A DNA stretch of 6,364 nt from a virus (lineage: Duplodnaviria; Heunggongvirae; Uroviricota; Caudoviricetes). Under the pieces are notes generated by a model, which saw only the letters and a program-made list of their open reading frames with translations, ran no database searches and had not been told where the DNA came from. Of this stretch, positions 1 to 6,364 are shown piece after piece. Within the stretch, counting starts at the first letter, position 1. The number at the start of each line of letters is the position of its first letter. The translations under genes were made by a program, and so were the position numbers. The stretch lies in IMG/VR virus record IMGVR_UViG_2713896780_000023. One strand, written 5' to 3'.

Positions 1-743
1 ATCAGGCTGTCGTAATGCGCGTCATTGTGGATGTGCTGGCGCAGCCAGGCTTCATCGTGGCGATGTTCGATAATGGTATTGGCGATATGGTGACTGGTAC
101 GCATACCGTTAGTGGCCATCACCGACAGTACGGCATCGGCCATCAGGGAAACGCCTACGTGTGGATCGCAAAACACCTGGCTGATACCTGCCAGTTGTCC
201 CTGGACCTTTGCCACATCCAGCGTGGTTCCGCCTAAATCCACAATCAGCAGGGATTCAAACGGACTCATGTCAGCCAGTGCTTTAAAACCAGCCGGAATG
301 GATTCAGGCATAACCCGTACGTTACGGATAGTGAATGCTTTTCCGTTCTGGTACGCCACCGGGCGCATGACGTTTGCTTTTTTGCGGTTGATGTTGGCCA
401 TGTCCGGCTGTGCGTTTGTGTCGAAATATTCGCTCAGTGGCAGGGTGACAACCACATCCACTTCCTGTGGTGTGATGCCTGATTTGACCAGCGCGTGATG
501 AATGGCAATGACATTCACATCGCTGTACTGGTATTGCGTGTCGGTCGTCTGGACAAAGCGATCGCTGACCGGATCAAAACCATAGCGCACGCCATCAAGC
601 ATGTAGTTTGCGGGCTGCGTGCCACCGAACGGCGCAGACCATTCCGACTTGAAGCTGTTCGGGCTGATGGCGTTGCGGCGTTCGCCGTTCTCAGTCCATG
701 CCAGCTTGATGTTGGTGGAGCCGTCGTCGATACAAATTTTCAT
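1..743 (-). CDS. parM: ParM/StbA-like actin-family plasmid segregation ATPase; N-terminal ~247 aa, 3' end runs off the left edge of the window
   Basis: Reverse-strand ATG at 743..741 preceded by AAGGA 8 nt upstream; open to position 1. Translation begins MKICIDDGSTNIKLAWTENGERRNAISPNSFK and contains QYSDVNVIAIHHAL, VMPESIPAGF and LLIVDLGGTTLDV, which match from memory the phosphate-1, connect and phosphate-2 regions of plasmid R1 ParM (FIDDGSTNIKL, SPNSFK, VMPESIPAG, LLIIDLGGTTLD). Not in the supplied ORF track because it has no in-window stop. Confidence 0.8.
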   Translation of the reverse strand, partial: MKICIDDGSTNIKLAWTENGERRNAISPNSFKSEWSAPFGGTQPANYMLDGVRYGFDPVSDRFVQTTDTQYQYSDVNVIAIHHALVKSGITPQEVDVVVTLPLSEYFDTNAQPDMANINRKKANVMRPVAYQNGKAFTIRNVRVMPESIPAGFKALADMSPFESLLIVDLGGTTLDVAKVQGQLAGISQVFCDPHVGVSLMADAVLSVMATNGMRTSHHIANTIIEHRHDEAWLRQHIHNDAHYDSL

Positions 744-4083: not shown

Positions 4084-4133
4084 NNNNNNNNNNNNNNNNN
4101 NNNNNNNNNNNNNNNNNNNNNNNNNNNNNNNNN
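4084..4133. other. N-masked block (50 nt), sequence unknown
   Basis: Run of n characters in the input. Confidence 1.
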
Positions 4134-4203: not shown

Positions 4204-4358
4204 GGTGTGGCCTCTTTGCTCGGTGATAGAAATAACTCACCATCCAGAGTTGAGAATCTCGGGGTGGCGAGACGTACAGGGTTCTCAACACCGGAGAGCA
4301 AAGAATCCGGCCCGACCGAAGTCGGCCCCGTACGCCCCGCCATAATTCTGACGCGAAA
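4204..4358 (-). ncRNA. Candidate structured leader / small RNA region (minus-strand sense) between the two masked blocks
   Basis: Minus-strand hairpins read directly. (a) GGCCGAC-UUCG-GUCGG(G)CC at about 4311-4329, a GC-rich stem closed by a cUUCGg tetraloop. (b) Nested stem GUUGAGAA / UUCUCAAC (4248-4255 with 4281-4288) enclosing inner stem UCUCG-CCACCC-CGAGA (4256-4271). (c) GGUGA-N10-UCACC at about 4221-4240. (d) CCGGA-N10-UCCGG at about 4290-4309. No ORF with a complete, verifiable reading frame lies in this stretch. Boundaries are unknown because both ends are masked. Confidence 0.25.
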
Positions 4359-4409
4359 NNNNNNNNNNNNNNNNNNNNNNNNNNNNNNNNNNNNNNNNNN
4401 NNNNNNNNN
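4359..4409. other. N-masked block (51 nt), sequence unknown
   Basis: Run of n characters in the input. Confidence 1.
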
Positions 4410-5197: not shown

Positions 5198-5220
5198 TGC
5201 GCCCCCTTTGTCCAGTAACC

Positions 5221-5631
5221 CTATGCGTTAAATACGGCACATTGCGCGTCATCAATGAATACAACTTGAGAGCGTTCTATCAGGCGGAGATTTGTCAGAA
5301 TTTCTGATTCCCTTATGGGGTGAGGAGTGATCAGGTATTTATCCTGTAATCCGGCGATAATGGTGTATCGCTGTAGCTCCGAGCCAATTGTGTAAATAAG
5401 GCGTCCGGTGTTAGACAAATCCAGTCCGGTGACTGGTTGTGTTCTGAGAACCGCCAGTTCAGCATCCTGTTTTGCGATAATTTCGGCTGCTTCTGCCGTG
5501 ACTCTTGCGACTATCAGTGTGTGGGTTGCGACGTCCATATGTGCATTTGCCACGGCTTTTTTCGCTACTTCGTTTTCTGTCTTTGAAATTTCTTTCAGTG
5601 CTCTGATGATACCTTCTTCTTTTGCGTGCAT
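5221..5631 (-). CDS. Hypothetical protein, 136 aa, no recognised family
   Basis: ATG at 5631..5629 with GGAG 8 nt upstream; TAG stop at 5223..5221. First gene after the 93-nt AT-rich gap 5632-5724. Confidence 0.55.
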   Translation of the reverse strand: MHAKEEGIIRALKEISKTENEVAKKAVANAHMDVATHTLIVARVTAEAAEIIAKQDAELAVLRTQPVTGLDLSNTGRLIYTIGSELQRYTIIAGLQDKYLITPHPIRESEILTNLRLIERSQVVFIDDAQCAVFNA

Positions 5632-5724
5632 TTTTGTATCTCCGTTATTTGCGTGTGCGAATACCTCCGTTAATACGGATGGTTTTCACGTTTTCTTATT
5701 TAATTTGATGCTTTATTTGTATCG

Positions 5725-5838
5725 TTATTCACCAGTGAAAAAGCGTTCAATCTTTTTTACTGAATGAATAATTCGCATAATCCCAATGGCGCAGGCCACA
5801 GAAATAATCAGAACAAGCCATGAGATAAATATACTCAT
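5725..5838 (-). CDS. Small hydrophobic peptide, 37 aa (MSIFISWLVLIISVACAIGIMRIIHSVKKIERFFTGE), one predicted transmembrane helix with a basic C-terminal tail; not in the supplied ORF track
   Basis: Hand translation of the minus strand. ATG at 5838..5836 overlaps the TGA stop (5837..5835) of the 80-aa ORF (ATGA junction); GGGGA 8 nt upstream; TAA stop at 5727..5725. Confidence 0.4.
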   Translation of the reverse strand: MSIFISWLVLIISVACAIGIMRIIHSVKKIERFFTGE

Positions 5839-6077
5839 GCGATATTCCCCAGCTTATACGGTTCAATATGTTCCCCGCATTCTGCGGCACAGATTAGCTC
5901 GGAAAGTTCGTTAAGTGCATCCAGATCATCAGCGTAAAAAGCCACGTCATACAGACTCCGGATTGCCCTGGTCAATGAGTCACGGGCTGCACGTTCAGCA
6001 TGAGCGCCTGATGCACTTAAGCGAAAATAAAAACGCTCAAGTGCTTTGTTGATGAGTGTTTTATATTCTTTGTCCAT
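5835..6077 (-). CDS. Hypothetical protein, 80 aa, no recognised family
   Basis: ATG at 6077..6075 with AAGGG 8 nt upstream; TGA stop at 5837..5835 overlapping the peptide ATG. Confidence 0.5.
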   Translation of the reverse strand: MDKEYKTLINKALERFYFRLSASGAHAERAARDSLTRAIRSLYDVAFYADDLDALNELSELICAAECGEHIEPYKLGNIA

Positions 6078-6088
6078 TGCAACACCCT

Positions 6089-6364
6089 TTAATCTGCTTT
6101 CTGAATTTTAGCTTCTGAATCCATGCAAATAATTTCGATATAGGGTTCATTGCCATTAGCCTGGCGCGCTTTTTCAGCTTTGCTAATGATTTCTCGTACG
6201 GTCTGGTACGGAAGTTCCACAAGCAGTCGCGTGCCGTTCAGATAAACGTAAGTGGCTTCGTCGGCTCCGTTTTTACCCGCCGGAGCCACTCCATCAATAG
6301 CGGATGCGCGTAATAACAGTTCACCGCGAAAATCAATAAAACGGATAAATACACCTTGTGCATG
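6089..6364 (-). CDS. Hypothetical protein, C-terminal 91 aa of an ORF whose 5' end lies beyond the right edge of the window
   Basis: Minus-strand frame is open from position 6364 to the TAA stop at 6091..6089 (HAQGVFIRFIDFRGELLLRASAIDGVAPAGKNG...). The ORF track shows only the part from an internal GTG at 6289. Confidence 0.5.
   Translation of the reverse strand, partial: HAQGVFIRFIDFRGELLLRASAIDGVAPAGKNGADEATYVYLNGTRLLVELPYQTVREIISKAEKARQANGNEPYIEIICMDSEAKIQKAD

Follow-up and report, generated by a model that had tools for sequence, protein, structure and literature searches.

A conserved 37-codon gene overlapping DUF4754 in P88-like prophages and its predicted single-pass membrane protein product

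We have analyzed a stretch of 6,364 nucleotides of viral DNA (IMG/VR record IMGVR_UViG_2713896780_000023, in what follows the window) and find that a 37-codon reading frame within it is almost certainly a real coding gene, that its product, MSIFISWLVLIISVACAIGIMRIIHSVKKIERFFTGE, is very probably a single-pass membrane protein and that its expression is likely to be coupled to that of the DUF4754 gene next to it as part of an early operon. The first of these statements follows from frame-specific selection and from conservation across alleles and subfamilies, which together argue that the amino acid sequence itself is preserved by selection. The gene is not new, databases already holding exactly the same reading of it, and the main result is a clean validation of a short gene that was missed by the length cutoff of the ORF track.

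DNA searches place the window in a P88-like prophage of the genus Xuanwuvirus (Peduoviridae, P2-like), with 97.8% identity to Citrobacter phage Shae_phiSM and 98.4% to E. coli O145 prophages. All of the genes in the window lie on the - strand and are listed, along with the smaller features of the peptide gene and its surroundings, in Table 1. In complete relatives the same genes are flanked by a cox-like gene (with the divergent repressor and integrase) and by gpA, and the order DUF4761 - DUF4754 - peptide - variable genes - gpA is kept in every locus examined. Judged from the sequence, the region extending from the cox-like gene to gpA is the early lytic operon of the phage.

Table 1. Positions of the genes and smaller features of the window, from high to low coordinates
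Feature	Position	Strand	Remarks
phrog_3800 gene	high-coordinate end	-	cut by window end
DUF4754 gene, 80 aa	5835..6077	-	Pfam PF15946, E 2e-54
SD-like GGGGAA	5845..5850	-	within last DUF4754 codons, ATG 7 nt downstream
ATGA start/stop overlap	5835..5838	-	signature of translational coupling, read from sequence
Small membrane protein gene (predicted), 37 codons + TAA	5725..5838	-
Predicted transmembrane helix IFISWLVLIISVACAIGIMRII	5767..5832	-	codons 3-24; from hydropathy, AlphaFold and conservation
Predicted cytoplasmic tail HSVKKIERFFTGE	5728..5766	-	codons 25-37; from subfamily alignment
Conserved 5-bp stem-loop	5666..5679 (flanks ~5655-5695)	-	46 nt past peptide stop codon
136-aa gene, then 67-aa gene		-	next in - strand order after the 37-codon ORF
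MarR-like winged-helix gene, then Ead/Ea22-like gene		-	beyond 67-aa gene
Stretch with two masked N runs and C4 antisense RNA			beyond Ead/Ea22-like gene
121-aa gene		-	between C4/N-run stretch and gpA-type gene
gpA-type replication endonuclease gene, 940 aa	820..3642	-
ParM-like gene	1-743	-	start only

The start of the 37-codon ORF is unambiguous, there being no in-frame start further upstream, and its ATG (5838-5836) overlaps the TGA (5837-5835) that closes the DUF4754 gene. The overlap reads ATGA in 103 of 104 distinct alleles and GTGA in the other one, and it is kept in all distant subfamilies. The SD of the gene is modest, with a GGGG(AA)/anti-SD duplex energy of only -5.5 kcal/mol, and other subfamilies have a stronger GGAGG, GAGGAG or GAGGTGG at the same place, despite different C-terminal residues of DUF4754. 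A preliminary description of this DNA had ascribed to the gene both an SD of its own and an ATGA coupling to the upstream gene; both are present here and in every subfamily, and they persist even where DUF4754 itself retains far less than half identity.

At the base composition of this DNA the chance of an open frame of 37 codons is approximately 0.24, so that a lone sequence proves nothing and comparative evidence must decide. Approximately 190 IMG/VR loci were collected, anchored on the DUF4754 gene; a scan of genome contigs gave only 2 loci, and the diversity was taken from IMG/VR and from exact-sequence look-ups. Among the 104 distinct alleles that adjoin an intact DUF4754 gene the 37-codon ORF is intact in 97 (96 with ATG and 1 with GTG), and the remaining seven carry frameshifts in the C-terminal part only, five leading to 45 aa and two to 30 aa, each caused by a change of 1 nt within an A6 or T5 run close to the 3' end. 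A stop within the hydrophobic part is found in 0 of the 104 alleles. In a collection of 15 billion proteins the frameshifted forms occur on 1-15 contigs, as against more than 1000 for the intact forms. Pooled over the 58 distinct intact alleles, pN/pS is 0.26 in the peptide frame, compared with 1.37 and 1.11 in the other two frames of the same DNA, and is 0.17 for the DUF4754 gene next door. The judgment of the preliminary description that the gene is probably real is thus strengthened, and conservation of the small ORF in homologous loci, which it had proposed as a check, is what we observe.

Selection on the amino acid sequence is seen at larger distances as well. A HMMER search of 1.84 billion cluster representatives matched 9 proteins, all from the peptide's own family, including three 41-aa subfamilies that are 54-68% identical to it and whose loci run DUF4761, a DUF4754-like 80-aa gene, peptide (with a 4-nt overlap), variable genes, gpA. 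Between subfamilies pS is 0.47-0.81, at or near saturation, with pN values of 0.19-0.30 and, where computable, dN/dS of 0.23-0.35; the differences are concentrated at third codon positions and synonymous changes exceed non-synonymous ones (Fisher p 4e-6 to 1.5e-2). These data bear directly on a reading in which the sequence of the peptide is unimportant, the frame being open by chance or serving only to hold ribosomes on the message from DUF4754 to the next gene. In its favor one can cite the appreciable chance expectation given above, the weakness of the SD and a further same-strand frame (5747..5890) that is also open in the window. Amino-acid-level selection is, however, confined to the peptide frame, the level of protein identity quoted above and the same motifs are retained where the DNA is only 60-72% identical to that of the window, and the other two frames hold stops in other subfamilies. 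Moreover, an untranslated spacer of 93 nt follows the ORF, which therefore forms no bridge to the next gene. We regard a chance frame or pure relay as extremely improbable, and the sequence comparisons bring it close to refuted.

The additional frame (5747..5890, -, 47 aa) was considered as a gene in its own right and rejected, its pN/pS exceeding 1 and stops interrupting it in other subfamilies. It covers most of the peptide gene as well as the end of DUF4754, and in frameshifted assemblies gene callers fuse it to DUF4754, giving 'DUF4754' proteins of 103-116 aa; only as the tail of such fusions does it appear in databases. Also rejected was programmed -1 frameshifting at an in-phase A_AAA_AAG (5752-5758, -, codons 27-29), a dnaX-type slippery sequence at which a -1 shift would end the protein after 30 residues, since the heptamer is absent from many alleles and from other subfamilies. 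Many alleles with GTG at codon 27 break it; in rare A7 alleles the 30-aa form is encoded without any shift, and the 45-aa forms come from deletions in the A6 or T5 run. The site is probably only a hotspot for mutation or sequencing error.

The claim that the gene is unannotated does not hold, as PGAP, the P88 and vB_EcoM-569R5 records and UniProt already carry it. The 37-aa product is identical to P88 gp07 (YP_009113050.1, 'membrane protein') and to RefSeq WP_000021656.1 ('hypothetical protein', PGAP), it is entered as 'putative membrane protein' in the vB_EcoM-569R5 record (URC09552.1) and as 'Prophage membrane protein' in UniProt, and in tblastn its matches in P88 and Citrobacter phage Shae_phiSM are 100% identical. 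P88 gp07 does not differ in any respect, having the same 37-aa sequence, the same place after DUF4754 and the same 4-nt overlap; the database names, that in UniProt included, are automatic predictions. Searches of the literature by accession, DUF name, peptide sequence and phage name returned no functional data and no paper mentioning the peptide. Comparison with Pfam, PHROGs, NCBIfam, PADLOC and the PDB gave nothing usable, the only Pfam hit at E up to 1 being a spurious one to PET117 (E 0.19).

The gene is, at the same time, very common. A look-up of the exact peptide sequence finds it on more than 1000 contigs, and the 114-nt gene turns up in 1342 of 5426 complete E. coli genomes, with O157:H7, O104:H4, O145 and ST131 strains among the carriers. 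In 39 of 40 rows sampled across the ranking a 'hypothetical protein' and the DUF4754 gene are both annotated under the match. Members of the family occur in Salmonella, Shigella and Citrobacter records as well. One further contig, of 226 kb and labeled 'Vagococcus sp. WN89Y' (NZ_JBQPOM010000071.1), has a DUF4754 gene that matches its E. coli counterpart at 99% identity; the label, that of a Gram-positive genus, probably reflects contamination or a mislabelled assembly.

A hydrophobic core followed by a basic tail, the architecture first proposed for the peptide, is indeed what the sequence encodes. Residues 3-21 are strongly hydrophobic, with a position-independent Hessa sum of -2.9 kcal/mol and a mean Kyte-Doolittle value of 2.68, and this check of the membrane segment, likewise suggested at the outset, supports a transmembrane helix. 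Residues 22-37, the last 16, contain 4 K/R and 2 D/E. AlphaFold predicts one continuous helix over residues 2-35 with a pLDDT of 86. The peptide thus belongs to the size class of at most 50 aa with a single helix and a positively charged end, cytoplasmic by the positive-inside rule, and from this rule and the charge count an N-out/C-in topology would result, in which the two N-terminal residues are periplasmic. S6, W7, G19, I23 and I24 are invariant across subfamilies, as are K28 and I30 in the tail, where E31 and F34 are almost so; the sequence ends T/S-G-E/D, and the conservation of the tail equals that of the helix. The pattern of conservation in the tail is weakly periodic (reached by 611 of 20000 shuffles). 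A conserved face on the transmembrane helix, by comparison, is not significant, 3159 of 20000 shuffles reaching the observed value.

A scan of positions 5200-6364 for sigma-70-like sequences detected no promoter-like site on the - strand, and this result, along with the overlap with the upstream neighbor, argues for expression of the peptide from the early operon; co-production with DUF4754 is argued for by the conservation of overlap and SD across all subfamilies. Because of its position in the early lytic operon the 37-aa gene would be expected to stay off in the lysogen and to be expressed only upon derepression or infection, a timing that is read only from gene order and a simple promoter scan. 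The DUF4754 gene was in all cases found directly upstream of the peptide gene. Its protein is predicted with confidence to be all-helical (AlphaFold pLDDT 90), and comparison of the fold with the PDB and BFVD retrieved generic helical bundles, none at E <= 0.001. In one mosaic locus (L193, 2001-2353) the middle of DUF4754 has been replaced, with the result that the protein is 44% identical overall to that of the window, which it resembles over its first ~14 and last ~10 residues; the peptide downstream is still 84% identical and the ATGA overlap is kept.

Several other features of the locus deserve mention. All 51 distinct spacer variants and every subfamily have the stem-loop downstream of the peptide gene, irrespective of the gene that comes next; compensatory changes affect two of its stem pairs, and it lies at the junction where the downstream gene content turns variable. 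The operon strand has no U-run behind it. A conserved T-rich run does stand behind the hairpin on the + strand, where a scan flags the structure as terminator-like, and transcripts antisense to the operon may be terminated there, where the conserved cassette gives way to the variable genes. Within positions 5200-6364 a single sigma-70-like match was detected, antisense to the operon (5583-5610, +, TTGAAA-16-GATGAT), a count within chance (1 found, 2.1 expected). This site lies outside the conserved block and upstream of the hairpin, which on the + strand path precedes the peptide ORF.

Further along the operon, a full-length match to the Rfam C4 antisense RNA (RF01695) is located at 4260-4347 (-, 78.5 bits, E 1e-14). 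N runs of 50 and 51 bases, at 4084-4133 and 4359-4409, mask both sides of it, and the ORFs that span them are masking artefacts. In relatives the C4 RNA adjoins a small 'derepression protein' gene, and this context suggests a P1/P7-style C4-antirepressor immunity module inside a P2-like prophage. Directly after gpA the prophage has a ParM-type plasmid segregation gene and a 'plasmid partitioning/stability' gene (window 1-743, -; locus L001, 64-1339), an unusual cargo for an integrating P2-like phage.

The topology, timing of expression, partner binding and role that we infer for the peptide can be combined into a single scheme, which we put forward tentatively as the best explanation of the whole: the peptide would be a coupled early-operon, single-pass, partner-binding accessory protein. 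Ribosomes that finish DUF4754 would most likely reinitiate at the overlapping ATGA, helped by the modest SD, with DUF4754 and the 37-aa peptide made together as a result. The helix, residues ~3-24, would cross the inner membrane, leaving just two residues outside and placing the basic conserved tail (K28, I30, E31, F34, T35, G36) on the cytoplasmic side. Embedded in the membrane, the peptide would act as a small accessory factor with a binding partner, which could be an inner-membrane protein of the host or else DUF4754, in the latter case tethering DUF4754 to the membrane, and would adjust host physiology in early lytic growth without punching holes in the membrane. The tail is as conserved as the helix, which points to a specific contact rather than to bulk perturbation of the membrane. 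By contrast, the null result for a conserved helix face weakens the partner-binding reading, and the middle of DUF4754 is weakened as the partner because the mosaic locus described above swaps this part and yet keeps the peptide. Judging from the frameshift alleles (7 of 104), the tail may not be strictly required, unless these alleles are sequencing errors. All in all, that the peptide is a partner-binding modulator or anchor, rather than a toxin or an exclusion factor, seems to us plausible without quite being probable.

There are cellular proteins with which such a peptide can be compared. AcrZ, MgrB, MgtS, PmrR and Blr are small single-pass inner-membrane regulators of E. coli that bind a larger membrane protein, and in most of them the C-terminus is cytoplasmic. 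The peptide is of the same size class and one-helix architecture, and by analogy theirs is the mode of action that we favor for it; it differs from them in that a phage encodes it and its gene is coupled to that of a soluble helical protein, and homology to any of them was not detected. Small single-pass inner-membrane regulators would then be its nearest cellular kind by functional analogy, not by homology. A possible resemblance of the peptide to the helix of E. coli Blr was considered and dropped, since the full HMMER scan gave no relative outside the peptide's own family.

A peptide of this build could also damage the membrane in the manner of a type I toxin, a kil protein or a holin, oligomerizing and dissipating the proton motive force or arresting growth early, and its size, single hydrophobic helix and charged tail match such a function. 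Small residues conserved in the helix at positions 13 (S/A), 17 (A) and 19 (G) could support self-association, and other temperate phages have host-inhibiting genes (186 fil, dhr) in an equivalent slot of the early operon. Type I toxins (Hok/Gef, Ldr, TisB, Ibs, ShoB, DinQ, ZorO) have fewer than 50 aa, one hydrophobic helix and a charged end and target the inner membrane, and the peptide has in common with them that it is small and hydrophobic with one predicted transmembrane helix. These toxins, however, are stand-alone and controlled by antisense RNA, whereas the peptide gene is translationally coupled inside a phage operon and has no transcription unit of its own; no antisense RNA signal was detected at the locus, although a novel sRNA is conceivable there, the C4 RNA, the only Rfam match of the window, lies far from it, and neither the Pfam comparison nor the HMMER search of cluster representatives produced a match to type I toxin families (Hok_Gef, Ldr, TisB, Ibs and others). 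Holins and pinholins are likewise small membrane proteins with a charged C-terminal tail, but their genes belong to late lysis cassettes, next to those for endolysin and spanins, and dual starts or two or more helices are usual. The peptide gene belongs to the early operon, with the cox-like gene on one side and gpA on the other; lysis cassettes are distant, no lysis gene is nearby, and no holin family in Pfam or PHROGs is matched. In these respects the peptide lacks defining features, as far as sequence analysis reaches, of both the type I toxin and the holin class named in the preliminary description; a kil-like or membrane-regulator role, which it also mentioned, fits the position and the architecture. 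Lambda Kil is a small, non-essential, host-directed protein. Fil (75 aa) and Dhr (66 aa) of the P2-family phage 186, which block cell division and depress host replication, respectively, are also small, non-essential and host-directed, and their adjacent, overlapping genes are situated in the early lytic operon between the switch and the replication genes, a slot that resembles that of the peptide; like them, the peptide gene is encoded in the early lytic operon of a temperate phage. Unlike the peptide, Fil and Dhr lack a full transmembrane segment, and neither resembles it in sequence. Homology to 186 Fil, whose LIIRIVH tail resembles GIMRIIH in the peptide, was considered and rejected (no BLASTP alignment, hhalign probability 0.4%). 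The small ORF that follows cox in P2, orf78, is basic and not hydrophobic, again unlike the peptide. It also speaks against a membrane-damaging function that depolarization ahead of replication and assembly would deprive the phage of energy, and that a conserved cytoplasmic tail suggests a specific contact. Taken together, we consider damage to the membrane rather unlikely.

An inner-membrane peptide might, alternatively, block the entry of DNA, stopping injection of the genomes of other phages during replication. Small inner-membrane proteins are known to block phage injection, e.g., T4 Imm and HK97 gp15, and the predicted location of the peptide in the inner membrane and its wide spread among E. 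coli prophages fit such a role. Exclusion genes of temperate phages are, however, normally expressed from the prophage, whereas the peptide gene is part of a repressed early lytic operon with no promoter-like site nearby. Its position is outside the known variable defence hotspots of P2-like phages, PADLOC finds nothing, and only two residues of the peptide would face the periplasm. Superinfection exclusion is therefore quite improbable.

Returning to the peptide as a partner-binding accessory protein, a more ambitious version can be formulated, in which DUF4754 and the peptide constitute a two-part, membrane-targeted module for host takeover or counter-defence. The part of the peptide would be to hold DUF4754 at the inner membrane or to activate it there, and in this way to disable a membrane complex of the host, examples of targets being the divisome, FtsH or a membrane-bound abortive-infection effector. 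Such a module is distinctly unlikely as matters stand; if real, roughly one E. coli genome in four would have it in a prophage.

Small membrane proteins of phages have received little study, and the present one is tractable, as it is found in an inducible, isolated phage (P88), is very common and is clearly under selection. Prophages with the peptide reside in a quarter of sequenced E. coli, major pathogen lineages included. If its partner were identified, two orphan families, the peptide's own and DUF4754, would gain a function at once, and a missing part of the early programme would be supplied for P2-like phages other than P2 and 186.
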